Sequence record: MN445185.1
DNA: 64,000 bases
DNA from: Escherichia phage vB_EcoM_EC001
Strand: one strand, 5' to 3'
Shown here: piece after piece, positions 16,806 to 58,652 of the stretch
Layout of the letters: every line of letters starts with the position of its first letter
How positions within the stretch are numbered: the stretch's first letter is position 1
The notes under the pieces: model-generated
What the model was told of the DNA's origin: nothing
Databases searched by the model: none
Seen by the model: only the letters and a program-made list of their open reading frames with translations
Made by a program: the position numbers and the translations under genes

Positions 16806-18659
16806 ATGGTAAAAATCGTTGACTCTAACAACAACGCTCAGCAGAACAACACTCAGACTCAAGACACCGCACCACTGGGCGGTCTGGGCAACGAGACTGT
16901 AAAAGTGCAAACTGCTGTGCCGGGTACTTCTACTGTCAGCCAATTCGATAACGCATTTGGCATCCGCAACATCAGCACCTATGCAATGCACTTCACCAAC
17001 CTCCTGGATGAGCTGAAGAAAAGCAACGAATACCTCAACGCATTCCGCTGGGGCACCATCGTCGGCGTGGGTAACGAAATGGGTTCCGCGGCGTATGTCG
17101 CAGGCCAATGGCAGGGCCACTGGCTGTATGGTATCATCTTCTTTGAACGCGGTCAGTCTCTGCGTCTGAAAGAAACTACCAACAACGGCCAGGAAGACTA
17201 CTACACCATCACTGAACTGTTCAACAAAGACGTGCTGGCAGTAGTACAGAAAAACATCATGGAAGCGCATGGTCTGACCAATGCGAACTTCATGATCATC
17301 AACTCCGTACCAGACCTGGGTAAAGTTCTGGATGCTGAGTGGGCACGTACACTGATGGGTCAGATGATGATGGGCATCTTCGGTCGTATCGCAGGCTACC
17401 TGGGTACGCTGAACCTGCGTAAGCATGACCGTTATCAGGCCGCAGTAATGCCGCTGGAAGATGGTGCGGTTGTTGATGCTAACGGCCACGCACAGCGTGC
17501 TGATTTCGCAATCACCGTTGAGCACAGCCCAAGCAACGTAACCGATGCCACTCCGACTCTGCTGGACACCAATCAGGTACAGGTGTATCCGCGTGTATCC
17601 GGTACCGGTTTCGTCAATATGCGTTTCACCGGTCAGAAGCCTGTCGTTAACGGCGTCTACGACCTGAAACAGCTGCAGGCTGAAATCGTAGTAAGTCTGA
17701 TCGATTCTCAAACTGAAGGTGCAATGGCACCGTATGAACGTCAACTGCTGCTGCTGGCTGCATTTGCAGAAATCGCGGCAATCGGTGGCTGGCGTGACCT
17801 GTTTGTGAAACGTCTGAACAAACAAGATCGCAAGTTCTCCCGTGTGGCAGAATACCTGTCCTGGGGTGCTGACGCTCGTCCTGATGTATCCAAAATCGAC
17901 GGTAGCCGTGAAGCTATCGAAGGTTGCCTGGATATGTTCGCACCGCGTGAAGCAGCACTGGTAGTTAGCCATCGTGCCGGTAACGGCCTGGGTGGTCTGT
18001 CTACTTTGCTGTCTGAAATTGCGGTCGGTTACGACAACTCTCTGAAACAGCTGCTCGCTATTCTGAATTCCATGTCCCCGCGTGATCAGAACGGCGAAGT
18101 TGTTGCAGCGACCAGCTTCACTGCAGTATTTGCTTCTGCACTGAAAGCACAGCTGGGCGATGCCTTCAATGGTACCATCCATTGCAGCCACATCGTGAAA
18201 GCAGCCGTACCGACTGTTTCCGGTGTTTACACCGGTACTGCACAGAAACGTAGCTTCCAGGATATGGACCTGATTTCCGTTGTTACCAAACTGGGTGATA
18301 ACGCGAACGACGTCTATAGCTACCTGAACGCACAGTCCTACAGCCACCGTGAACTGAACGAGCGTCAACAGCGTATCTACATGCTGAAACTGGCCGCTTC
18401 TCTGTTCGCATCCAAAGCACCGCAAGCTACCGGTGAATCTCTGGATATGGCTATCAACCCGATCTTCGGTAAATGCCTGCTGGACTTCGTCCGTAACAAC
18501 TGCACCTGGTCTATGACTGGTGTAAATGCCTACAACACGATGGCGACCTCTCTGTTCTTCAACAACGGTGGGGAAGACTTCACGCTGTCTGGCAACGGCC
18601 TGTCTGCAAGCGGTTCCGATTTCGGTCTGGGCGTGACTCTGAGCAACTTCAAACTGTAA
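16806..18659 (+). CDS. abundant protein with host-like codon bias; candidate phage-nucleus shell protein (chimallin-like), function unconfirmed
   Basis: 617-aa ORF with strong preference for ctg/ccg/ggt/cgt/aac codons, two promoter-like motifs upstream, TAAGGAA RBS, low-complexity N-terminal tail, immediately upstream of the RNAP beta-prime N-terminal gene. Confidence is for the CDS, not the function. Confidence 0.7.
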   Translation: MVKIVDSNNNAQQNNTQTQDTAPLGGLGNETVKVQTAVPGTSTVSQFDNAFGIRNISTYAMHFTNLLDELKKSNEYLNAFRWGTIVGVGNEMGSAAYVAGQWQGHWLYGIIFFERGQSLRLKETTNNGQEDYYTITELFNKDVLAVVQKNIMEAHGLTNANFMIINSVPDLGKVLDAEWARTLMGQMMMGIFGRIAGYLGTLNLRKHDRYQAAVMPLEDGAVVDANGHAQRADFAITVEHSPSNVTDATPTLLDTNQVQVYPRVSGTGFVNMRFTGQKPVVNGVYDLKQLQAEIVVSLIDSQTEGAMAPYERQLLLLAAFAEIAAIGGWRDLFVKRLNKQDRKFSRVAEYLSWGADARPDVSKIDGSREAIEGCLDMFAPREAALVVSHRAGNGLGGLSTLLSEIAVGYDNSLKQLLAILNSMSPRDQNGEVVAATSFTAVFASALKAQLGDAFNGTIHCSHIVKAAVPTVSGVYTGTAQKRSFQDMDLISVVTKLGDNANDVYSYLNAQSYSHRELNERQQRIYMLKLAASLFASKAPQATGESLDMAINPIFGKCLLDFVRNNCTWSMTGVNAYNTMATSLFFNNGGEDFTLSGNGLSASGSDFGLGVTLSNFKL

Positions 18660-28610: not shown

Positions 28611-29978
28611 ATGAAATTGATTGAATTCTACCGTTCGTTTCTGACCTCGCTCGGATACGGATTCGAAGGTGACATGCTGACTATCGATGATGGTCATCCG
28701 GCAATGTTCACCTACAACAAAGTGAAGCGCCGCTTGGTGCTTCCAACTGCAGCGATGATTAAGCGTGGGTTGGAAGATGACGAAGGTAGTGAATGTCATG
28801 CGTTCCACCCACTGTGTGAATCGGTACTGGCTGGCGAATCTGGAACGATTCGTTTCCTGAAGAAAGCCATCAGCGCGAACCTCTTCCTGAAAAGCTTCGA
28901 GTTAATCGATGCGATTTTGGAAACAGCAGCCGAAGGAAAAAATATCCGTCTGGCATCGTACAAGAAGTTTTTAAGCGATGTGGTTTGTGCTGACCTGAAA
29001 GATCCAACGATGGATAAGAAACTGGTTCAGAGCTGGCACGCAGTGAAGAACTACGTTTACGGGTTGCTGGAAGAAGATAAAAAGACAAAGATCACCAGTA
29101 TCTTCATCTCCAGCGATATGACCATTGAAGGTATCAAATATATCCGTGTGGCGAACTACAAACACATGTTTGAAGAAGAGTCACTGGATGGTACGGCAAC
29201 ATTCTTCGGTGCCAAGCTCCAGCGTAAGCAGGATAAGGTTATTATCTTTAACCTGCTAACTGCAGTGTTTGGTTGGTATCCTTCGGTTACGGGTTCTAAC
29301 GATCCGCGTCCGTACTTCGGTTCTTTGGCACGCGGTTGGGCACAATACGTGACCAACTACAATCAAGTGGTTCGTGGTCTGCGTGACCACACTCCACTGC
29401 GTCCGTTAGAAGAAGAATGGATTGGCCAACTGGATAACATGAGCGTTTATGATAACGTTATCCAAACTCTGCCGTATAATACCGGCCCACGTAACGATCA
29501 GGCAACAGACACCACCGCAACGGATTTCCGTATCGGGCGTACACCTGCCGGCACAAAGCCGGTCGTTGCTTTAGCTTCTCAACAAGCTCCGCAGGAAAAT
29601 CTTGATCTCAACGATCCGGTAAACTATTTCCGTGCGAAGAAAGCGCAACAGGCGTCTTCAGCTAATAGCTTCAATGCGTTAGCACCGAAGATTCAGGAAG
29701 CGCTGCGTGAGAACAACGGCCATTTACCGAAAGGGACAATTAAAGAACTGTCTCTCGGTGAAGCGCTGCGTGGTAATGCGGTGACGAAAGAAAGTGGTCT
29801 GGGTTCTGGTTTGCTGGGAAGTAGTAATAATCTCTTGGGGGGTAGCACGCAGTTGGGCGGCGGTAGCACCAACCTCTTAGGAGGGAGTAGTGACGTGTTA
29901 GGTGGTCTGGGTGGTTTAGGTGGCGGAAGTAGCAGCAGTTTAGGCAACCTACCATTCTCATCAGCTAATTTACGTTAA
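28611..29978 (+). CDS. hypothetical protein with glycine/serine-rich repetitive C-terminal tail
   Basis: 455-aa ORF; tail SGLGSGLLGSSNNLLGGSTQLGGGSTNLLGGSSDVLGGLGGLGGGSSSS. Confidence 0.65.
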   Translation: MKLIEFYRSFLTSLGYGFEGDMLTIDDGHPAMFTYNKVKRRLVLPTAAMIKRGLEDDEGSECHAFHPLCESVLAGESGTIRFLKKAISANLFLKSFELIDAILETAAEGKNIRLASYKKFLSDVVCADLKDPTMDKKLVQSWHAVKNYVYGLLEEDKKTKITSIFISSDMTIEGIKYIRVANYKHMFEEESLDGTATFFGAKLQRKQDKVIIFNLLTAVFGWYPSVTGSNDPRPYFGSLARGWAQYVTNYNQVVRGLRDHTPLRPLEEEWIGQLDNMSVYDNVIQTLPYNTGPRNDQATDTTATDFRIGRTPAGTKPVVALASQQAPQENLDLNDPVNYFRAKKAQQASSANSFNALAPKIQEALRENNGHLPKGTIKELSLGEALRGNAVTKESGLGSGLLGSSNNLLGGSTQLGGGSTNLLGGSSDVLGGLGGLGGGSSSSLGNLPFSSANLR

Positions 29979-29989
29979 GCGTTAGAAAG

Positions 29990-30016
29990 AAGGGACTGGG
30001 CGTCCCTTCTTTTTTT
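29990..30016. terminator. intrinsic terminator (aagggactgggcgtccctt plus T-run)
   Basis: Between convergent genes 28611..29978 (+) and 30016..30339 (-). Confidence 0.5.
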
Positions 30017-34794: not shown

Positions 34795-37539
34795 ATGGTA
34801 GAAATTCAAATGACTTACACGAGTATGGGGGTACGGGTTGAAGTCCCTATCCGCCAGGCTGAAAGGGCCATACTCGCGTGGGCCGAAGAGAATATGCACG
34901 CCCCAAAGATGGGCAAGCAACATGGACGAATAACTACGGAACGCGGTGACGCGTACTACGCCCACATTCCGTCTTTAAGGACGTTCATTTTCCATAAAGT
35001 GTTCGCTGAGAAGATTAAACATATCCTCCAACGAGCAGCAATTGAATATGCTTTTCAGTACAAGCTTACAGAGCACCATCCTGAGCGAGGAACACCTTAC
35101 TGCTGTACATTTGATAACTACGGCTTCTCGATGGTAGAAAGCGATCCGGAGTCGCGTTTCTACTATCAGAACGAGGTTGTGGATGCAGCGTCCGATCCAA
35201 ACCGACCACAGACAATCTTTGCCATTCAGACAGGGAGAGGAAAATGCTGTGCTCATGGTACGCGTGTGCGTGTACCGGGTGGTTGGAAGAACATTGAGGA
35301 TATACAGCTAGGTGATTACGTTACGGGGCGTGACGGAAAACCAGCAATGGTCTCTGGAGTGTTCCCACAGGGTGTGGTTGACCTGTATCAGGTGACGTTT
35401 TGGGATGGTAGGAGTGTTGACGTATGTGGCGAGCACTTGTGGCAAAGCTACTACGTTAATACCACCGAGAATCGTCGCTGGGGTGTACGTGATACCCTAG
35501 AGATGAAACGTTTAATTTCGATGCCTAATCCACGGGTATACATCCCATTACCAGAACCAGAGGAAATGCCAGCTAAGGATTTTGTCATTCATCCGTATTT
35601 ACTCGGTATCCTCTTGGGTGATGGCTCCCTATCGATGCCTGGTGTTTTATACACCAAAGGCGATGTGGAGATTCGTGACCGTGTTGCTGAGGTCATGCCC
35701 GCTGGACATGCAATCCATGATTCATCGTACAGCGATGGGATAACGAAGTGCATCTCTTGTCCCGGCGGTGTTAACCTTGTCCGCAGAGAGCTTGAGCGGT
35801 TAGGGTTAATTGGCTGCAGGTCTTGGGAAAAGTTCATACCTGGAGATTACTTCGAAACGTCCATCGAACAACGGTGGGAGTTGTTGCGTGGCTTGATGGA
35901 TACTGACGGTACTGTGGATAAGGATGGTGGTACGCCTTCTTTCTGTTCCACCAGTAAAGAATTGGCTTTAGGTGTTCAGGAACTTGTGCGGTCTTTAGGA
36001 GGGATTGCAACACTACGCGAGAAACGTCCGTTCTTCACACACAACGGCGAACGTCGTGAAGGTCGTTTGGCTTATAACGTCTCCATCCGCCACAAAACAC
36101 CATCGAAACTGTTCCACCTTCCAAGGAAGAAAGAACTGTGTCGTGATAACGGACAATACACCGATATACTGAAACTCCGTGTTAAGTCTATCGAACCCAT
36201 TGGTCGTGATCTTGCCACGTGTATTCGTGTCGAGAACGACGATGCGTTGTTTGTGGTGGACAAGTGGATCGTTACGCACAACACCAAGACCTGTATGAAG
36301 TCGATGGTTAAACGGGGAACCCGTACCGCATTGATTCACCGTCCGTCGTACGTTCCCAAATGGCTGTTTGACGTCTGTGATGATGAAACAGGACTTCGTA
36401 TACTTCGTGACGAGGTGTTAGTTTGTACAGGCGTACAGGCGATTTACGACGCGCTGGAGATGGGTAAGTCGGGAGAGCTAGATAGTCGTGGTATTAAGGT
36501 AATAATCCTCCCCACGGTCTCTCTACAGCGTTTCCTGAAGGAGTACATTAACACTGCTGCGACTAACCCTGTGGACCTGGATACGTTTTATGATGTTCTG
36601 GGTGTGGGTCTGGTGGCGATGGATGAGGTGCACGAGCATTTTCACCTCGTTTACATGGCTGGTATAATGTTGAACCCTCCGGCATCGATAGAGATGTCTG
36701 CAACCCTTAAGCCGGGTAGCAGTAAAGCCTTTATCGCGGAGCGGTATTTAGAACGTTTCCCAATGGAGTACCGAATCAGTATTCCAATCATTCCGGTGGT
36801 TGACGTGAAGGCGTTGTACTATCGACTGGATGATAAGAAGTTTGCGTGGTGGGCGTCGAAGATGACGCCGTATAACCACAAGCTCTTCGAAGGGAAGCTG
36901 ATTAAAGAGAACTTGCATTTAGAATACGCGAACATGATCTGGGATGTGGTTGAGAAATCGTTCCTTAAACGGTATCAACCTGGCCAAAAATGTTTGATAC
37001 TCTTTGCTACGGTAGCGATGTGTGAGTTCTTTACCGAGTATGTGAAAGATAAGTTATCGCGTGACCCTGTATTCCATCCGTTGATGGTGGCGAAATATAA
37101 TGCAGGCGATTCGTATGACGACTTTATCCAAGCAGACTTCTCTATCTCCACACCGGGGAAAGCGGGGACTGCGGTCGATAAACCTGGGTTGGTACACATG
37201 TACATTTCAACCCCGGTAGAAGACCAGCAACTGAACGAACAGATGGCCGGTCGTCCACGTAAGATTCTCCACAACGAATGGGGTGAAATAGACCCAACGG
37301 TGTGGTTATTCCATGCGTATAACGTACCGAAGCATTGCAATTACCTGAATGCCCGCCAGAAATCACTCAAGGATGTCGTATTGTCGTTCCGTATCGCGAC
37401 ATCCCCCTACGTTGTAAGGAAATCACATGCTCACTCCGCCGCGTCCAGCAGAGCCGCTGCCACCCTACATCGGAATGACTTTAGCAAGTTTTCTCGAAAA
37501 CGTTCTAAAGGCGTATCCCGGCGTAGAAGACGTCGCTAA
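34795..37539 (+). CDS. SF2 (DExH-box) helicase interrupted by an intein in the Walker A motif; 3-prime end uncertain
   Basis: Start at ATG with GAGGGG RBS (track ORF 34738). Extein motifs: P-loop GRGK-[intein]-TKT, DEVHEH, SAT, QMAGRPRK. Basic C-terminal tail overlaps the next ORF. Confidence 0.65.
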   Translation: MVEIQMTYTSMGVRVEVPIRQAERAILAWAEENMHAPKMGKQHGRITTERGDAYYAHIPSLRTFIFHKVFAEKIKHILQRAAIEYAFQYKLTEHHPERGTPYCCTFDNYGFSMVESDPESRFYYQNEVVDAASDPNRPQTIFAIQTGRGKCCAHGTRVRVPGGWKNIEDIQLGDYVTGRDGKPAMVSGVFPQGVVDLYQVTFWDGRSVDVCGEHLWQSYYVNTTENRRWGVRDTLEMKRLISMPNPRVYIPLPEPEEMPAKDFVIHPYLLGILLGDGSLSMPGVLYTKGDVEIRDRVAEVMPAGHAIHDSSYSDGITKCISCPGGVNLVRRELERLGLIGCRSWEKFIPGDYFETSIEQRWELLRGLMDTDGTVDKDGGTPSFCSTSKELALGVQELVRSLGGIATLREKRPFFTHNGERREGRLAYNVSIRHKTPSKLFHLPRKKELCRDNGQYTDILKLRVKSIEPIGRDLATCIRVENDDALFVVDKWIVTHNTKTCMKSMVKRGTRTALIHRPSYVPKWLFDVCDDETGLRILRDEVLVCTGVQAIYDALEMGKSGELDSRGIKVIILPTVSLQRFLKEYINTAATNPVDLDTFYDVLGVGLVAMDEVHEHFHLVYMAGIMLNPPASIEMSATLKPGSSKAFIAERYLERFPMEYRISIPIIPVVDVKALYYRLDDKKFAWWASKMTPYNHKLFEGKLIKENLHLEYANMIWDVVEKSFLKRYQPGQKCLILFATVAMCEFFTEYVKDKLSRDPVFHPLMVAKYNAGDSYDDFIQADFSISTPGKAGTAVDKPGLVHMYISTPVEDQQLNEQMAGRPRKILHNEWGEIDPTVWLFHAYNVPKHCNYLNARQKSLKDVVLSFRIATSPYVVRKSHAHSAASSRAAATLHRNDFSKFSRKRSKGVSRRRRRR
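35245..36282 (+). mobile_element. intein (346 aa) with double-motif LAGLIDADG homing endonuclease
   Basis: Begins CCAHGTRVRVPGG...IEDIQLGDYV directly after P-loop GK; contains LLGILLGDGSL and LRGLMDTDGTV; ends VVDKWIVTHN followed by Thr. Predicted spliced P-loop is GRGKTKT. Confidence 0.7.
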
Positions 37540-37810
37540 GAAACTCTGCACCGACGCCACTATCAACCAAGCGTTTCATTACTACATGGTCACTGAACAT
37601 TACAGTGGCCTGTTCCTTAACCAACGCGGGTTGACGTATTACGTCACCCGCACGTCAAGTATCCGTAACACTTCGTCGTACGAGCTTTATACGTACGTGT
37701 TGTGGAATGAGAACCCGGCCGGTAGTGTCGATCAGAATCCAAAGATGGCTTATCGTCTTTACTCTGAAAAATGGCACGATTGGGTGACTGTTCCACACGA
37801 TGCAAGTTAA
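37475..37810 (+). CDS. hypothetical protein (start uncertain)
   Basis: Internal ATG (MTLASFLEN) of track ORF 37427..37810, which overlaps the helicase 3-prime end. Confidence 0.4.
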   Translation: MTLASFLENVLKAYPGVEDVAKKLCTDATINQAFHYYMVTEHYSGLFLNQRGLTYYVTRTSSIRNTSSYELYTYVLWNENPAGSVDQNPKMAYRLYSEKWHDWVTVPHDAS

Positions 37811-37870
37811 TCACGTTTTGGGTGTATATTGTGTATACACCCAACCCCTAATTTCAAAAGGATTATTACG

Positions 37871-38491
37871 ATGAGTCGTCGCAAAAAGAAACCCGCTTAT
37901 AACCCACGTAAAGACGCCCGCGATTTCGTCAAGGCGATGATGCAGTCTGTGTTGAAAAAACAAGCTGTGTTTATCGAAAGTACCGAATTCCTGTCAGGCA
38001 GAATTGATCGGGAGCGTGAAGTAACTGAAGCCATTACGCACGAAGAGCTGAAAGCCTTTACGTTGAAAGCGCTGGATGAAGCACAGGCGGCTTTCCTTGG
38101 CATGTGTCAGCAAGGCAAAGAGCTGTTCGGTAAACTGATTGTTGAGGCAGATGCTAAGGCTGTGCCGGTGTTTGACATGCTGAACGATAACAGCAAAACG
38201 TGGAAAGAAATCAAAGACCAGTTCCACGTCGACCACACCGAACTGTCCCTGATTGACCAGCGGGCAAACATGCTTGCGATGGATATTCAGGGCACCAGTA
38301 TCGAAATCTTCTCCACGTATAACGCGAAAGTGAAGTTCGTGAAGCAGGCGCTGAATAACGGGCATACCGTGGAACAAGCCGAAGTTCTGTTGGCTGAAGC
38401 TCTGGCTAATAATTCGAAGGAACTCCCTAAAAACGCCATCGTCGATCACAACGACGTTGTAGTAGAAACCGAGGAAGCGGCACATGTCTGA
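37871..38491 (+). CDS. hypothetical protein
   Basis: Internal ATG (MSRRKKKPAYN) of track ORF 37829..38491 with AAAGGA RBS. Confidence 0.55.
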   Translation: MSRRKKKPAYNPRKDARDFVKAMMQSVLKKQAVFIESTEFLSGRIDREREVTEAITHEELKAFTLKALDEAQAAFLGMCQQGKELFGKLIVEADAKAVPVFDMLNDNSKTWKEIKDQFHVDHTELSLIDQRANMLAMDIQGTSIEIFSTYNAKVKFVKQALNNGHTVEQAEVLLAEALANNSKELPKNAIVDHNDVVVETEEAAHV

Positions 38492-40454
38492 GATCCAAGA
38501 TCAGCGTCCGGGTAATGCCCGTCGCCCTAATCCCGACCAGCCAGCCCCTGTGGCGGCTGCTACCCAACAAGAGATGATTCTTCCGACCGTGCCTGATGAC
38601 GCGACCTCGGATGCAATCATCATGGCTATTAAACAAGCCAATCCCGATTTTTCTTTTGCCCGTGCAGAAGAAGTTTATCACCAACACTATCATCGTCCGG
38701 AGCCTAAGCTTGAGCGTCCGACGTTTGTAGAAGAGGCGTTGCCTGAACCTGCTGCACCTGTACCACCGGCACCTCAGACTTTTGCTGAACAGGTGCAGGA
38801 GCACCTACATCGTGCCCCGGAACCGGTAGTAGAGAAAGCGCCTACGGTAGAACCTGCTCCGCAGCCAAAAGCTCCGGAAGCGGTTGCACCGGCACAGCCG
38901 GCTGTAAAAGAAATGGAAGATGCAGCACCGAAGGTTCCGGAACAACAACAGATGCGTGAGATTGACTTCGGTAATACCCATTTAGCTGAAACCGCCGAAA
39001 TGGGTGAAGATGAAGCCGATCGTATTCTGACACAGTCGAAGATGTTGATTGGTCTGAAACAAGACCCTAACATCATTGCAGACTCCCTGCAAAAGTTCCT
39101 CGGTAATATTAAACGTTCACCGAAAGACGGCCGGCTGCTATTCGAAAGCCCTGAACAGCAACAGGTTTACGACGACATCTATCGTGCTTTGAACATGACC
39201 CCGCCACGTCTACAGGACGGCGTACCGGCATTCGCGGGTGCACTGGACCGTGGTGATACCGCTTGGGAACAGCGTGTGATGTTGCCGGACGGCAAGGCAT
39301 CTGGTGCTATTGCACCGCGTGACAATATGCACACTGGCGCGCTGGCTGCCTTACGTCGTGTACGTAAGTCGGGTATTCCGAACATGGTTTGGTTGCCGGC
39401 CACAGGTATCTACGTGGGCTTCCGCGCACCGCACGAACGTGACCTTTGTGACTTCGACATGCGTCTAACGCTGGAAACTGCGACCATCGGTATGCAGACC
39501 TACGGATTGATGCTGTCGTCGTCTTCTGGCGTGTACATGCGCCACATGGTTGAATTCGCACTTCAGTTTGTTACCGAAGCAACCATCGATTGTGCGGGTA
39601 ACGATCTGCGTACGGTGCTGTTGGATACCATTGATCTGGCTGACTACTGGCTGGTTATTCTGGGTCCGTTGCAGGCGAAGTGGCCGTCTGGTATTCCATG
39701 GACGCTGATGTGTGGCGAAGACGGTTGCAACCAGCAGGAAGATGTGAAGCTGAACATCGCGCGTTGTATCCGTTTCGGTTCCGGACTGTTTAGCGACCTG
39801 CAGAAACAACTGTGGGCACGTCAACGCGGTACTGAGCGTCCAGTGATTTCTATTGCAGAACAGCGCGAATATATCGCGGCGCATCAGGTTGATCCGTCCT
39901 CGGTATTTGAATACCACGACGTGCGTGTTGAATTTGGCCGTTCCACCCTGGGTAGCTTCTTTGACTCCACCGAGAAGTGGATTGAAGACGTTAACGCGTC
40001 AACTACGGCAGCGCTGTCTGAATTTGCTACCGAGCGTGAACGTGAATCCCATATGCGTTTAACTGCGGAAGCCCGTCGCTTAACGCGTTACGCTCACATG
40101 GTGAAGTCTATCACTGTTAATGAGCAACGTGAAGTAAACGGTGAAATGCAGGTTATCCCACAAACTGAAACCGACACAGCGAAAATCGTTGAGATGCTGG
40201 AAGAGCTGTCTTCCGACCGTATCTACGTTGGTCAGTTTGAAAACGCGATTGCTGAATACAACGAACGTACACGTTTAGCGGTATTCGGTTACATGGGTAA
40301 ACGCTGCCCGGCGTGTGGTAAAACACACGGCGAGAAAGACGGTCTGTATCGCGGTATTGTTACCATCAGTCCGGACAGGGTTTTTTTCGTGCTCTCTCGA
40401 GTGGTGTCCGAGATTCAGAAATTCTTGCTGGATCAATACGCCGATATTGGCTAG
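38484..40454 (+). CDS. hypothetical protein with proline-rich PAPE-repeat N-terminal region and single CxxC near the C-terminus
   Basis: 656-aa ORF, host-like codon usage; low-complexity Pro/Ala/Glu-rich N-terminal segment (about residues 80-140) with repeated PAP/PEP units; later CPACGKTHG. Confidence 0.6.
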   Translation: MSEIQDQRPGNARRPNPDQPAPVAAATQQEMILPTVPDDATSDAIIMAIKQANPDFSFARAEEVYHQHYHRPEPKLERPTFVEEALPEPAAPVPPAPQTFAEQVQEHLHRAPEPVVEKAPTVEPAPQPKAPEAVAPAQPAVKEMEDAAPKVPEQQQMREIDFGNTHLAETAEMGEDEADRILTQSKMLIGLKQDPNIIADSLQKFLGNIKRSPKDGRLLFESPEQQQVYDDIYRALNMTPPRLQDGVPAFAGALDRGDTAWEQRVMLPDGKASGAIAPRDNMHTGALAALRRVRKSGIPNMVWLPATGIYVGFRAPHERDLCDFDMRLTLETATIGMQTYGLMLSSSSGVYMRHMVEFALQFVTEATIDCAGNDLRTVLLDTIDLADYWLVILGPLQAKWPSGIPWTLMCGEDGCNQQEDVKLNIARCIRFGSGLFSDLQKQLWARQRGTERPVISIAEQREYIAAHQVDPSSVFEYHDVRVEFGRSTLGSFFDSTEKWIEDVNASTTAALSEFATERERESHMRLTAEARRLTRYAHMVKSITVNEQREVNGEMQVIPQTETDTAKIVEMLEELSSDRIYVGQFENAIAEYNERTRLAVFGYMGKRCPACGKTHGEKDGLYRGIVTISPDRVFFVLSRVVSEIQKFLLDQYADIG

Positions 40455-40498
40455 ACCAGGAAGACGTTCCGTCCGAGCAAATCATTACAACGCTCAAG

Positions 40499-40870
40499 AT
40501 GGATACCACCTCTCTCTTCAAGCAGCGTAGCACACGTCCTATTACGTATCAGGAAGCCCATAACGAGCTTCTGGAAGCGTATGACCGTACACTGGCTCTT
40601 AATACCGGCGACCATCAGGTAGGGTTGTCGGATTTTGAAAACCCGGTATACGGTAGTCTTTACGATATCTGGTACGCCACTTACTTACGTGAAGAGGTCG
40701 GTGAAAACTACCGGATGTCGATAGACGAGTTCCTCGACCGTCCCCGCTGGCAGATACTGCTGATGCTCGACAATATCCGTCGTCGCAAAGCGATTATCGC
40801 CAAAGCCGGCGAACAGGTGGCAGGTGAACGTGCGCTAAAGGAGCTGGAGAAAGATCTGACGGGACATTAA
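40499..40870 (+). CDS. hypothetical protein
   Basis: 123-aa ORF followed by terminator. Confidence 0.5.
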   Translation: MDTTSLFKQRSTRPITYQEAHNELLEAYDRTLALNTGDHQVGLSDFENPVYGSLYDIWYATYLREEVGENYRMSIDEFLDRPRWQILLMLDNIRRRKAIIAKAGEQVAGERALKELEKDLTGH

Positions 40871-40879
40871 TAGAAATTC

Positions 40880-40908
40880 GGGGCTTCGGCCCCGTTTTCT
40901 TTTTTTTA
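40880..40908 (+). terminator. intrinsic terminator (ggggcttcggcccc plus T-run)
   Basis: Hairpin plus long T-run. Confidence 0.6.
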
Positions 40909-56037: not shown

Positions 56038-57315
56038 ATGGCAAACTTTGTAAAAAGTAAACTCGCCCGCGAGTCCGTTGAAGCTACCGGCGACGTAATC
56101 GACGGTCTGAGCAACGTTGAACCGGCAGAAGAGAACATCGACGTTCAGCTGGCAGAAGTTGCGTCTATCGACGGTCAGCTGGAACAGCTCGATGGTGACC
56201 AGGAAACCCTGGCTGCTGATACCGAGCGTACCGAAGCTGCTATCGACGCTGCTGACGAAAAAATCGAAAACGGTGAAGAGATGCCTGAAGAAGCCATCGC
56301 TCACACCGAAGTGGCGCAGGAATCTATCCGTAAGCGTTGGGCTATCGATCGTACCAAACTGGCACGCGAATCTTATCGCCGCGGCCGTGGCATGACCAAA
56401 GCAGCTCAGGAAGGCTGGAAAGAAACCCTGAAAGATCTGTTCAAGCGCTTCGTTGAACTGTGTAAAGCAGTTATCGCGAAAGCGAAAGAGCTGAAGCTGA
56501 AATACATCAACGTTGGTAAGTCTGCACAGAAACGTGCGAAAGCTTACCAAGAGATGCTGCGTAAGCTCGGTAAGCAGAAGAAAGAAAACATCTCTGGCGG
56601 CTTTATTAGCAAACTGTCTATCGAAGGCGACTTCGATGTGGCCAACTCCATCGCTATCGCGAAAGAGCTGACCGGCGGTAAAGCGAAAGATGCTATCAAC
56701 AAGCTGTCCTCTCAGGCGGCTGACTCTGCCGTAGCGATCACCAAAACTGCAGAAGGTACTGCAACGGCTGCTAAAGGCGCCGTTGATGTTGCCCTGTTCG
56801 GTACCGCTGCTAAGAAACTGCGCACCCTGCCGCAGTTCGAAGATGGCGAAGGCGGTCAGAAAGTTCTGGCACTGCCAGGCAACGCCTATGTGCAGATCGG
56901 TAGCAAAACTCTGGCCGGCGGCCAGGAGTACACTGCGGTGGCGTTCCTGTCAACTGGCGACTCTACCGACACGAAAGAGATTGCTACCCCGGCAATTACC
57001 GCACTGGCGTCTGCAGCAACCGCTCTTGATGCGATCGGTAAAGGTTTCGAGAAAGTGCTGCAGGACTTCCGCTCCTATGACGCCGAAGTTGAGAAACTGG
57101 AGCAGGCTGCTAGCAAAGCTGCTGCTGCCCTGGATAAATCCAACGACGAAGGCGAGTGGGAAGCACTGCGTAATGCACGTACTGCAGCCGACCAGGCTGT
57201 GCGTAACTACCAGACTCTGAACCGTGCCGTGGCGCATGTTGGTAACACTGTTATCAGCGGCCTGAACGGTTACATCGGTGCTGGTATCGGCGCGTACGAA
57301 AAGTCTAAAGCTTAA
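56038..57315 (+). CDS. abundant paralog A with acidic N-terminal propeptide-like region; possibly virion or internal protein
   Basis: 425-aa ORF, host-like codon usage; first 15 aa identical to 57393..58652; shared VAQESIRKRW and C-terminal GLNGYIGAGIGAYEKSKA. Confidence 0.7.
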   Translation: MANFVKSKLARESVEATGDVIDGLSNVEPAEENIDVQLAEVASIDGQLEQLDGDQETLAADTERTEAAIDAADEKIENGEEMPEEAIAHTEVAQESIRKRWAIDRTKLARESYRRGRGMTKAAQEGWKETLKDLFKRFVELCKAVIAKAKELKLKYINVGKSAQKRAKAYQEMLRKLGKQKKENISGGFISKLSIEGDFDVANSIAIAKELTGGKAKDAINKLSSQAADSAVAITKTAEGTATAAKGAVDVALFGTAAKKLRTLPQFEDGEGGQKVLALPGNAYVQIGSKTLAGGQEYTAVAFLSTGDSTDTKEIATPAITALASAATALDAIGKGFEKVLQDFRSYDAEVEKLEQAASKAAAALDKSNDEGEWEALRNARTAADQAVRNYQTLNRAVAHVGNTVISGLNGYIGAGIGAYEKSKA

Positions 57316-57392: not shown

Positions 57393-58652
57393 ATGGCAAA
57401 CTTTGTAAAAAGTAAACTCGCTCGTGAATCTGTCGAAGGCGCAGGCACTGTCGTTCCAGATGGTATCGAGCTGCCGGCTGAGTCCGTGGAAGGTACTCTG
57501 GCTGACATCGAGCATGACACCAAACCGATCGACCAGCTGGACGCAGAAGCAGACGTGCTGGCAGAAGACGGTGACGAAACTGATGCACAGCTGGATGCAG
57601 TTGATGCTGCTGAAGCTGCCGCTGACGGTGAAGGTGAAGATGGCGAAGAGCCAATGGAAGTGGAAGAAGATATGCCTGACGATGCTGCTGAGCAGCTGGA
57701 CGTTGCGCAGGAATCTATCCGTAAACGTTGGGCATTCGACCACCGCGTAAGCGTTGCGCAGGAATCTTACGGTGCACGTAAGCGTCGTCAGGTTGCTCGT
57801 GAAAGCCTGTGGGAAGATATCAAAGCCTTCCTGAAGCGCATCTACGAGTGGCTGAAAGAGCAGGGCCGTAAAATCAAAGATCGCTGGCTCAAGTTCAGCA
57901 ACCAGGGTAAATCCATTCAGGCGCGTGCTAAGAAATATGACGCTGCGCTGTCTGGCCTGGGCAAGCAGAAGAAAGACACCGTTTCCGGTGGCTTCATCAA
58001 GAACCTGACCTCTAACGGCAAGTTCCTGGGTGACAACCTGCAGGTGCTGAAAGAGCTGCTGGCTAACATCGGTGGCGTTTACAGCATGCAAGAAGACGTC
58101 GTTCGTGAAGCAACTGTAATGGTAACTTCTATTGAGTCTGGCAAACACGTTGGCGGTTTCGCTGCAGCGGTTAATAAAGCAGTTTCTGGTAAGTCCGGCG
58201 ATCTGCAGCTGCTGGGCAACCAGATCGGTAAAGCTGACGTTAAAGTCAACGGTGACGACCTGGAAGCATCCTTCACTGTTATCGATGCAGAAGGCAGCGT
58301 AGAGCAGTCCGTAGCGACTCCTTCTCTGACCACCCTGAGTGGTCTGGTGGCGTTCTTCAATCAGCTGGGTAAAGCTGTGGAAGAAAACGTGAAAGCGTAC
58401 CACAAGAACAACCAGGCGCAAGAGAAGTACGAGCAGGCTATTGACAAGCTGCTGAAGCGTATCGACAGCGTGAAGATCGACGACAACGCCGAGCTGACCA
58501 ACAACGTACGTGTTGCTCGCCGTGCTATCACCATCGCGAACCAGTTCGTTTCCTGGACCGAACGTTGCGTTGCAACTGGCCAGAAAAACCTGATCGCCGG
58601 TGTTAACGGCTACATCAGCGCCGGTATCGGTGCTTATGAAAAGGCTAAGTAA
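57393..58652 (+). CDS. abundant paralog B (tandem duplicate of 56038..57315)
   Basis: 419-aa ORF; same N-terminus, AQE motifs and C-terminal GVNGYISAGIGAYEKAK; followed by terminator. Confidence 0.7.
   Translation: MANFVKSKLARESVEGAGTVVPDGIELPAESVEGTLADIEHDTKPIDQLDAEADVLAEDGDETDAQLDAVDAAEAAADGEGEDGEEPMEVEEDMPDDAAEQLDVAQESIRKRWAFDHRVSVAQESYGARKRRQVARESLWEDIKAFLKRIYEWLKEQGRKIKDRWLKFSNQGKSIQARAKKYDAALSGLGKQKKDTVSGGFIKNLTSNGKFLGDNLQVLKELLANIGGVYSMQEDVVREATVMVTSIESGKHVGGFAAAVNKAVSGKSGDLQLLGNQIGKADVKVNGDDLEASFTVIDAEGSVEQSVATPSLTTLSGLVAFFNQLGKAVEENVKAYHKNNQAQEKYEQAIDKLLKRIDSVKIDDNAELTNNVRVARRAITIANQFVSWTERCVATGQKNLIAGVNGYISAGIGAYEKAK

Follow-up and report, generated by a model that had tools for sequence, protein, structure and literature searches.

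The open reading frame at 38484..40454 (+) of the window, the 64,000-nucleotide stretch of Escherichia phage vB_EcoM_EC001 (MN445185.1) that was analysed, codes for the gp39 protein of a chimallivirus of the SPN3US type. This protein belongs to the family of phiKZ gp77 and Goslar gp081, which constitutes core gene cg18. The coordinates and the length of 656 residues given in a preliminary description of the sequence were confirmed by the list of open reading frames. The gene shares 99% nucleotide identity with positions 36054..38024 of the Salmonella jumbo phage SPN3US, and its product matches the profiles phrog_8054 over residues 1-656 (E=0, 1041 bits) and phrog_4585 over residues 115-639 (E=3.9e-66). 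Homology was found to phiPA3 by tblastn (1e-17) and to Goslar by BLASTP (3e-11). In earlier tabulations gp39 is paired with phiKZ ORF077 (Thomas 2016, Table S1), and cg18 is listed as a core gene of the chimalliviruses (Prichard 2023, Table S3). The counterparts of gp39 include phiKZ gp77, phiPA3 gp074, 201phi2-1 gp136, EL gp47, Goslar gp081, and RAY gp267; the homology is clear and the same four cysteines are found across the family. With 883 representative clusters (50% identity) recovered by phmmer at E<=1e-3, it is a large family and a strictly phage-like one. The features of the locus are as follows.

37871..38491 (+), gp38, the upstream gene, 206 aa (synteny, PHROG 8045)
38471..38475 (+), Shine-Dalgarno sequence GAGGA, 8 nt 5' of the ATG (read directly from the sequence)
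38484..40454 (+), coding sequence of the 656-aa protein, SPN3US gp39 (ORF list, nucleotide identity, PHROG)
38484..38693 (+), N-terminal module, residues 1-70 (alignment, AlphaFold2, regional identities)
38694..38978 (+), disordered acidic spacer rich in Pro, Ala, Glu, Val and Gln, residues 71-165 (composition, shuffle tests, pLDDT, alignments)
38979..39368 (+), alpha/beta subdomain ahead of the putative zinc domain, residues 166-295 (AlphaFold2 pLDDT 74-92, alignments)
39369..40451 (+), conserved family core, residues 296-656, a candidate gp26/gp51-like domain (AlphaFold2 models, Foldseek, and hhalign, the last not significant)
39711..39728 (+), first cysteine pair, C410-x4-C415 (alignment, AlphaFold2 secondary structure)
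40305..40316 (+), second cysteine pair, C608-x2-C611 (alignment, including that with T4 gp26)
40499..40870 (+), gp40, the downstream gene, 123 aa, third member of a conserved three-gene unit (synteny, PHROG 7580)
40879..40894 (+), terminator-like hairpin CGGGGC-TTCG-GCCCCG, followed by TTTTCTTTTT (terminator scan)

Annotation offers little on the role of this family, which is annotated throughout as hypothetical, apart from some database records of relatives that say 'baseplate protein'. Scans of gp39, 32 family members, and the neighbouring proteins against Pfam, NCBIfam, and PHROG returned no functional annotation, and a word-indexed homolog search with mixed alignment found nothing beyond the close clade. 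For gp39, gp77, gp077, orf77, gp78, and gp79 the searchable literature yielded no functional study or experiment on any family member; the matches to 'gp77' were all genes of other phages. A reading of gp39 as an AEP primase was considered on the strength of 'CDFD' and 'SSSSGVY..H', which resemble primase motifs I and II, and was rejected since these motifs are not conserved in the phiKZ-like members. The description of the gene as codon-optimised held in part: the bias is clear (self-referenced CAI 0.79, rank 7 among the 46 open reading frames of the window; ENC 43.7) but falls short of the most biased genes of the window, which reach a CAI of 0.85 and an ENC of about 35.

The genes of the window are arranged in the order gp38-gp39-gp40-gp41-gp42. 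The start of gp39 overlaps the stop of gp38 by 8 nt (ATGTCTGA), and the two genes are probably translationally coupled. The position of gp38 is that held in phiPA3 by the homolog of phiKZ gp78, and the hairpin at 40879..40894 closes the gp38-gp39-gp40 unit. This arrangement recurs in other genomes. Thirteen other chimallivirus loci were examined: in all of them a small upstream gene adjoins or overlaps the gp77-like gene, and most of the 13 have the complete trio (small gene, gp77-like gene, and a gene of about 125 aa), mostly beside gp79 and the gene for the beta' subunit of the virion RNA polymerase (vRNAP). The SPN3US-like genomes differ in that gp41-gp42 run in the same direction as the trio and do not diverge from it. 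The immediate neighbours of gp39 are thus gp38, gp40, gp41, and the vRNAP gene gp42; hub genes do not adjoin it, and the nearest baseplate genes, gp48 (the PHIKZ087 wedge) and gp49 (a tube initiator homolog), are some 9-13 kb downstream. A scan for sigma-70 promoters was uninformative because the phage uses its own polymerases.

The first 70 residues form a small module with a conserved tip (M1, R8, and P9 in MSE..DQRP..RR) and a predicted two-helix hairpin (residues 42-52 and 58-69, with the motif NPxFSFAxAE), for which AlphaFold2 gave a pLDDT of 91-95 over residues 31-70. According to the alignment and the regional identities, the conservation of this module does not extend beyond the SPN3US/Erwinia clade. 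It is followed by a segment of strongly biased composition. Residues 71-160 contain 22% proline against 4% in the rest of gp39 (binomial p=2e-10) and 56% proline, alanine, and glutamate together against 20% (p=4e-14), with a Shannon entropy of 3.26 against 4.03 bits. Only 8 of these 90 residues are F, I, L, M, W, or Y, and with 16 D+E against 9 K+R the segment is only mildly acidic. The preliminary description had placed the biased stretch at residues 80-140, about 60 residues; the bias is real, but composition and pLDDT extend it to about residues 71-165. Its further claim of a repeat of PAPE type was not confirmed. The tetrapeptide PAPE does not occur in gp39, Tandem Repeats Finder reported no repeat in the DNA at a score of at least 30, and the recurrence of short words is at the level of composition-preserving shuffles, both for 3-mers (15 observed against 11.8±4.2; a fraction of 0.25 of the shuffles reached the observed value) and for 4-mers (0.52).

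The idea of an extended linker, on the other hand, is supported. AlphaFold2, which served as the disorder prediction, assigned a pLDDT below 50 to most of residues 79-165, with means of 38-52 for 10-residue blocks over residues 71-160. In a comparison of 17 relatives the spacer was the least conserved region (identity 12-42%) and its length ranged from 69 to 156 aa, but its proline content was kept at 11-24%. Low identity and variable length combined with a steady composition fit a spacer that is selected for composition and not for sequence. The spacer at residues 71-165 is best regarded as a real, flexible, and non-repetitive linker. Proline-rich acidic spacers of a comparable kind are the Pro-Glu/Pro-Lys region of TonB and the PEVK segments of titin. 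The gp39 spacer is likewise rich in Pro, Glu, Val, and Ala, poor in hydrophobic residues, and predicted to be disordered, with a composition that outlasts its sequence; it differs from them in having no periodic repeat unit, no membrane anchor that could be seen, and a charge that is only mildly acidic. The long form of the spacer is limited to the SPN3US/Erwinia clade, whose members carry about 110-170 additional N-terminal residues (the two-helix hairpin plus the long spacer rich in proline) compared with the other members of the gp77 family. Most of the latter have just about 140 acidic and variable residues ahead of W261. An N-terminal part of at least 200 aa was present in only 17 of the 145 family representatives, so that the long linker is missing from most of the family, while the N-terminal parts of the family are in general acidic (D+E 19% against K+R 9%).

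The folded body of gp39 comprises about 490 residues. Its first part, residues 166-295, is moderately conserved and contains the nearly invariant W261. In the AlphaFold2 model the conserved core (residues 296-656) consists of two similar halves, each built as beta-beta, helices, and beta-[Cys pair]-beta. The first pair, C410-x4-C415, lies in the turn between the predicted strands 404-409 and 418-423, and the second, C608-x2-C611, follows the predicted strand 599-604. The preliminary description had noted a single CxxC, which is literally true of C608-x2-C611 but overlooks C410-x4-C415. Each of the four cysteines is retained in nearly all of the 145 family representatives (C410 in 143, C415 in 141, C608 in 142, and C611 in 143), and because of this conservation gp39 is likely to contain a Cys4 zinc site. 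The body matched no solved structure; a sequence match to Cas12f in the PDB (E=0.21) was at chance level and was discarded.

A possible relationship of the core emerged from comparison of predicted structures. A Foldseek search of BFVD matched gp39 to a protein named 'Baseplate hub assembly protein, bacteriophage T4-like' (E=5.2e-4, probability 1.00, TM 0.50 normalised to the target), and the link runs via intermediate phage proteins that form a graded series. T4 gp26 and gp51, which are classed as hub assembly chaperones (PMC3004832), hit Pfam PF12322 (T4_baseplate) at E=9e-64 and 4e-52, respectively, and both also hit phrog_150; the NCBI name of this family is 'gp26 family baseplate hub assembly chaperone'. 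Like gp39, they consist of two similar halves, each closed by a beta-hairpin that carries a Cys pair in its turn, and they have in common with gp39 a C-terminal CPxCGKTH...FFxL motif. The pairs of T4 gp26 are C82-x-C84 and C187-xx-C190, the latter of which aligns with C608-x2-C611 of gp39. An independent AlphaFold2 model of T4 gp26 (pLDDT 92) shows the same order of secondary-structure elements as gp39 residues 296-651 (EE-H-H-H-E[CC]E / EE-H-EE-H-H-E[CC]E-H). Likewise, gp51 is absent from T4 particles (PMC3004832) as gp39 is from those of SPN3US, and the hub of the chimalliviruses is very similar to that of T4 (Goslar preprint). There are also clear differences. The core of gp39 is larger (about 360 aa with long helical insertions, against about 208-249 aa for gp26/gp51), it is preceded by about 295 extra N-terminal residues, its first pair is Cx4C and not CxC, and its gene adjoins vRNAP genes and not hub genes.

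By hhalign, full-length gp39 and gp26 gave E values of 0.004-0.08. When the halves were compared separately, the cognate C-terminal halves gave E=3e-4 (probability 39%) and the N-terminal halves 0.004-0.02, while pairs of non-cognate halves gave 0.05-0.09. An alternative alignment, not significant, was colinear along the full gp26 and placed both Cys pairs and the strand 'IKIKFRYP / VRVEFGRS' in register. However, when the gp26 profiles were shuffled in blocks of 8 columns, the real comparisons were equalled or surpassed by 16 and 26 of the 60 shuffles, respectively, so that the profile signal essentially amounts to the CPxCG knuckle motif. On this account the hhalign support has been downgraded, and the kinship with gp26/gp51 is treated as hypothetical. 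Neither gp39 nor 32 family members matched PF12322 at E<=1, NCBIfam and phrog_150 likewise gave no match, and the family HMM scored below 8 bits against the gp26 and gp51 sequences (hmmsearch).

In the proteomes of four purified SPN3US particle samples gp39 had zero spectra in every one, whereas gp37, gp38, gp41, and gp42 were listed, gp42 with 27-37 spectra and gp38 and gp41 with low counts (Thomas et al. 2016, Table S4). Similarly, phiKZ ORF077 is not flagged as structural (Thomas 2016, Table S1). The chains of solved chimallivirus virion structures in the PDB contained no match to the gp39 family, although the same search recovered PHIKZ087 with the gp48 of the window (E=1.6e-141), and in Goslar all of the hub and inner-baseplate density has been assigned (Goslar preprint). 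The exception is Goslar gp081, which was detected with 24 peptides and 49% coverage in a virion preparation purified with CsCl, at an estimated 15-35 copies per virion, similar to the vRNAP subunit gp078 (its neighbour gp079 was estimated at about 10-24 copies). The same preparation contained chimallin, ChmC, and PhuZ, which its authors attribute to co-purifying assemblies. Taken together, gp39 is probably not a building block of the virion, and the suggestion of a virion or scaffold-like protein is not borne out, with the caveat of the Goslar detection.

We tentatively propose, as a serious possibility that stops short of being probable, that gp39 is a remote, enlarged, and zinc-clamped relative of gp26/gp51 that serves as a non-structural or very low-copy hub-assembly factor with the spacer as its tether. 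The core at residues 296-656 would then belong to the kin of PF12322, and its four cysteines would jointly bind a single structural zinc, clamping one half to the other. Such a protein would work in the cytoplasm as a morphogenetic factor for the assembly of the T4-like tail hub, probably with the co-transcribed gp38 and gp40 as partners. The spacer would provide a flexible and soluble tether between the N-terminal binding module and the chaperone body; with about 95 residues it could reach up to roughly 25-30 nm when extended (an estimate at about 0.3 nm per residue).

Other readings have to be weighed against this proposal. One is that gp39 and its relatives are low-copy virion proteins that are packed with the vRNAP, injected, and act early, the N-terminal region being a targeting segment or propeptide. 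The copy number of Goslar gp081, so close to that of gp078, would agree with this, as would the adjacency of the gene to gp42 and gp37, the latter being lost from particles without vRNAP, and the low counts of gp38 and gp41 in SPN3US particles. Against packaging stand the lack of spectra for the 72-kDa gp39 in samples where gp42 yields many, the phiKZ flagging, the lack of a solved chain, and the contaminants of the Goslar preparation, and this reading appears rather improbable. We also consider it unlikely that gp39 is a non-virion zinc-ribbon factor for phage transcription or replication whose Cys4 knuckles bind DNA, RNA, or RNA polymerase. The gene is indeed flanked by those for nvRNAP subunits and a helicase and, at its other end, by those for a vRNAP subunit and DNA polymerase, the Cys4 arrangement is zinc-ribbon-like, and the codon bias is fairly strong; but Pfam and NCBIfam found no polymerase-subunit or nucleic-acid-binding domain in gp39, the phiKZ-type RNA polymerases that have been characterised are described as enzymes of five subunits, among which this family does not figure, and the protein as a whole is acidic like its N-terminal region. 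In JGI a C-terminal fragment of identical sequence carries the name 'DNA-directed RNA polymerase subunit F', a label without profile support.

A role in the phage nucleus, such as protein import, mRNA export, or capsid docking, appears highly improbable. It would be in keeping with a core gene of nucleus-forming phages and with the disordered acidic stretches, since transport factors often have long disordered regions of acidic character. In addition, phiPA3 gp75, encoded directly upstream of the gp39 homolog, appears in a supplementary protein table of a paper on the interaction network of the phage nucleus. Against it, phiPA3 gp74 was not found by name in the supplementary tables of that paper, and the family is not named among the nucleus factors (ChmA-C, PicA/Imp) in the literature examined. 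Moreover, cg18 is not restricted to chimallin-encoding phages (Prichard 2023, Table S3), which fits morphogenesis better than a nucleus-specific role. The view of the preliminary description, a structural virion or scaffold protein with a PAPE-type repeat as an extended arm, now has scarcely any credibility. It could draw on the extended-looking proline-rich segment, on the relatives recorded as 'baseplate protein', and on the Goslar detection. Nevertheless, the segment has no repeat periodicity, the long linker is confined to a minority of the family, no chain of the solved virion models belongs to it even where the hub density is fully assigned, and the absence of gp39 from SPN3US particles, an outcome that the preliminary description itself had named as speaking against it, largely refutes this view for SPN3US. 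A more speculative combination, decidedly unlikely, is that cg18 is not a simple cytoplasmic chaperone but a dual-use protein, a zinc-clamped relative of the T4 hub chaperones that is carried in the particle at about the copy number of the vRNAP, as the Goslar data hint, and delivered with it. In concert with gp38, gp40, and gp41 it might act as soon as infection begins, perhaps at the tail tip or in the early infection vesicle, with the clade-specific proline-rich tether setting the reach between anchor and client.

The link to gp26/gp51, if true, would supply a function for cg18 (phiKZ gp77), a core gene of the nucleus-forming jumbo phages, and would mean that these giant phages combine a hub of T4 type with an assembly factor that is likewise T4-like but much enlarged. 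T4 gp26 and gp51 are themselves poorly understood, and a Cys4 clamp and an internal duplication conserved across both families would help to define their mechanism. As SPN3US has an amber-mutant genetic system, the predictions for gp39 are directly testable. The proline-rich linker taken by itself is an ordinary disordered spacer, of practical use for marking the clade and for studying the effect of tether length.

The 656-aa ORF singled out in the preliminary description is a real gene whose coordinates and length hold, and a hairpin lies beyond its downstream neighbour:

38484..40454, + strand: gp39 CDS, 656 aa
40879..40894, + strand: strong terminator-like hairpin, CGGGGCTTCGGCCCCG then a T-run, 3' of gp40

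The window belongs to a nucleus-forming chimallivirus, an SPN3US-like Salmonella jumbo phage of the genus Seoulvirus. Over its 1971 nt, the gene shares 99.0% nucleotide identity with SPN3US 36054..38024, and a protein of phage SaP7 is 100% identical to gp39; the RefSeq label is hypothetical protein. The window also carries the 127-aa gp37, the 206-aa gp38 and the 432-aa vRNAP subunit gp42 (431 aa in Table 5 of Thomas et al., 2016; PMC5105663), and its gene order matches Table S1 of that paper, where SPN3US gp39 is paired with phiKZ ORF077. Hence, these sizes and this order identify the ORF as SPN3US gp39, a member of the gp77 family. A Shine-Dalgarno GAGGA lies 8 nt 5' of the start, and gp39 shares its first 8 nt with the end of the upstream gene. 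Alongside this overlap, the hairpin after gp40 makes gp38-gp39-gp40 (37871..40894, +) look like one transcription unit. Only weak matches were obtained for the neighbours: influenza HA2 across ~95 residues for gp38 (37871..38491; E=0.01-0.09) and an 'uncharacterized protein', 5dmp_A, in the PDB for gp40 (40499..40870; E=0.003).

The family is widespread. PHROG 8054 (E=0) and PHROG 4585 (E=4e-66), both of unknown function, match gp39; tblastn recovered homologs in 230 phage records, including phages of Pseudomonas, Erwinia, Serratia, Klebsiella, Vibrio, Ralstonia and Burkholderia; and an exhaustive phmmer search gave 883 clusters (50% identity) at E<=1e-3, the best 150 representatives being mostly ~450-700 aa. 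The phiPA3 record describes gp074 as similar to phiKZ gp077, 201phi2-1 gp136 and EL gp47. The family is already listed as core gene cg18, a 'hypothetical protein' comprising Goslar gp081, phiKZ gp077 and RAY gp267 (Prichard et al., 2023), and the homology of gp081 to gp39 was confirmed by BLASTP (3e-11) and synteny. The gp081 gene lies at 28832-30001 of the Goslar locus (L017). In each of the 13 further chimallivirus loci examined, a small, often overlapping gene stands directly 5' of the gp77-like one; in most, a ~125-aa gene follows it and the trio adjoins gp79 and the vRNAP beta' gene. The trio is divergent from the gp79-vRNAP pair in most of these loci and co-directional in the window.

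An AlphaFold2 model built from a 32-sequence alignment (mean pLDDT 79.9, pTM 0.71) divides gp39 as follows:

residues 42-69: two-helix hairpin, confident (pLDDT 91-95 for residues 31-70)
residues 71-165: disordered segment, pLDDT mostly <50
residues 166-656: folded body, well predicted
first half of the core: strands 300-304 and 309-313, helices, strand 404-409, C410 and C415, strand 418-423
second half of the core: strands 474-477 and 480-484, helices, strands 540-551 and 554-562, two helices, strand 599-604, C608 and C611, strand 625-627, helix 630-651

The Pro/Ala/Glu-rich segment is present, but spans residues ~71-165 rather than 80-140. It contains 22% Pro against 4% in the remainder of gp39 (p=2e-10) and 56% P+A+E against 20% (p=4e-14), with an entropy of 3.26 against 4.03 bits and large hydrophobics at only 8 of 90 positions. 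The repeats attributed to it are not there: gp39 has no PAPE tetrapeptide, tri- and tetrapeptides recur in the segment no more often than in composition-preserving shuffles, and Tandem Repeats Finder reported nothing in the gp39 DNA. Among 17 relatives, whose overall identities are 39-76%, no part is less conserved than the linker (12-42% identity versus 49-85% for the core), which ranges from 69 to 156 residues, while Pro stays at 11-24% and the shares of Ala, Glu, Val and Gln remain similar. Composition that is kept while sequence drifts is the pattern expected of a functional disordered spacer, and supports the extended linker originally proposed. Only 17 of 145 family representatives have at least 200 residues N-terminal of the conserved W261 (median 142), and N-terminal parts across the 145 are generally acidic (D+E 19% vs K+R 9%); the long Pro-rich spacer and helix hairpin thus elaborate, in one clade only, on an N-terminus that is variable and acidic. 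The linker itself is ordinary. The gene had also been called codon-optimised, and its bias is indeed above the window average without being extreme (self-referenced CAI 0.79, rank 7 of 46 window ORFs; ENC 43.7). The strongest bias is found in ORFs 16806..18659, 56038..57315 and 57393..58652 (CAI ~0.85, ENC 35-37), the latter two matching in size gp53 and gp54, which are abundant in the head, and the 617-aa ORF among the three having no Pfam match.

In the model, residues 296-656 may be read as two similar halves. The CxxC reported as single (C608, C611) is accompanied by a second pair, C410-x4-C415; both pairs sit in beta-hairpin turns with zinc-knuckle geometry. These four cysteines are conserved in 141-143 of the 145 representatives and the remaining three show no conservation, which naturally suggests a putative structural Cys4 zinc site that would link the two halves.

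PDB sequence searches with gp39, a phiKZ-like homolog and the family profile were empty except for one chance-level match, and Foldseek of the model against the PDB gave E>=0.59, no solved structure matching the body. Against BFVD, the top-ranking matches were family members; smaller phage proteins without names followed (E=1e-11 to 1e-7), and after them a 284-aa 'Baseplate hub assembly protein, bacteriophage T4-like' (E=5.2e-4, probability 1.00, TM(target) 0.50). Pfam PF12322 contains both T4 gp26 and T4 gp51. In the AF2 model of T4 gp26 (pLDDT 91.9), the elements run in the order EE-H-H-H-E[CC]E / EE-H-EE-H-H-E[CC]E-H, with Cys pairs C82-x-C84 and C187-xx-C190. In the predicted models this order is the same as that of gp39 296-651, to which gp39 adds helical insertions, and both proteins look internally duplicated, the unit being beta-beta/helices/beta-[Cys pair]-beta. 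An internal start in T4 gene 26 gives an annotated product, 26', corresponding to the C-terminal half of gp26.

At the sequence level the link is not strong. The two families share no Pfam, NCBIfam or PHROG model, and the gp77 family HMM scores gp26 and gp51 at <8 bits. An alternative hhalign alignment is colinear over the whole of gp26, and in it both Cys pairs line up, as do the 'IKIKFRYP / VRVEFGRS' strand and the C-terminal 'CPxCGKTH...FFxL'; cognate halves align at E=3e-4 and 0.004-0.02 versus 0.05-0.09 for non-cognate halves. However, when the gp26 profile was shuffled in 8-column blocks, 16 of 60 (C-terminal half) and 26 of 60 (full length) shuffles equalled or exceeded the real score, and therefore the profile signal is essentially the zinc-knuckle motif. 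The case for homology to gp26/gp51 draws on the Foldseek match, the agreement in topology between two models predicted independently and the corresponding positions of both Cys pairs; such homology seems about as probable as its opposite, or slightly more so.

The preliminary description raised a virion or scaffold-like protein as a possibility; a structural or scaffold protein now appears highly improbable. In four CsCl-purified SPN3US particle preparations, gp37, gp38, gp41 and gp42 were found (gp42 with 27-37 spectra) and gp39 was absent (Table S4 of PMC5105663); phiKZ ORF077 carries no structural flag (Table S1 of PMC5105663). PDB chains, including chimallivirus virion parts, gave no match to the gp77 family, while as a positive control window gp48 matched PHIKZ087 (9xqs_A; E=1.6e-141). 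The whole hub and inner-baseplate density of Goslar has also been assigned (Goslar preprint), which likewise counts against a virion role. On the other side, mass spectrometry detected Goslar gp081 (24 peptides, 49% coverage), its copy number being estimated at 15-35 per virion, similar to vRNAP gp078, in a preparation which, according to its authors, also held chimallin, ChmC and PhuZ (Goslar preprint). The discrepancy with SPN3US reflects either a true phage difference or a purification artefact, and the virion evidence speaks mostly against a structural role. The Goslar copy number would suit a packaged, vRNAP-associated or injected protein, which in view of the SPN3US particles we consider unlikely.

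T4 gp26 and gp51 are classed as hub assembly chaperones, gp51 being required in assembly and missing from the particle (PMC3004832). The chimallivirus hub closely resembles that of T4 (Goslar preprint), and conservation of cg18 extends beyond chimallin-encoding phages (Prichard et al., 2023); hence a role in hub assembly is the best supported reading. That breadth makes a nucleus-specific factor, as might be expected of a chimallivirus core gene, very unlikely. A zinc-ribbon factor of transcription or replication, to which the Cys pairs could also belong, is unlikely. Tentatively, and with somewhat less than even confidence, gp39 may be a zinc-stabilised relative of gp26/gp51 that acts in morphogenesis and is non-structural or present only at trace level. 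In that role it would contribute to building the tail hub, probably with gp38 and gp40, and residues 71-165 would form an acidic, flexible segment tethering the chaperone body to an N-terminal binding module specific to the clade.

Databases already carry the gp39 sequence under the label hypothetical protein. Some automated records name its relatives 'baseplate protein', so pipelines have glimpsed the hub link; the literature search found no paper stating or testing a link between the gp77 and gp26/gp51 families. If this link is true, gp39 would represent a familiar type of assembly chaperone in a new and greatly enlarged form.

In several Salmonella phage SPFM genomes (e.g. LR535901) the gp39 gene appears fragmented or frameshifted, with 7-25 separate matched stretches (proteins P0025, P0028, P0030, P0031 and P0033), more likely through sequencing or assembly errors than as real pseudogenes. 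A 279-aa JGI fragment (P0032), equal to gp39 residues 378-656, is labelled 'DNA-directed RNA polymerase subunit F', a label without support from Pfam or NCBIfam profiles. Upstream, the 914-aa product of an SF2 helicase gene (34795..37539, +) contains an intein with a LAGLIDADG homing endonuclease at ~residues 150-495 (Pfam LAGLIDADG_3, E=3e-10; Hom_end_hint, E=2e-6). The SPN3US helicase is without it (CDS of 568 aa), and the coordinate offset between window and SPN3US shifts by 1038 nt across the gene.
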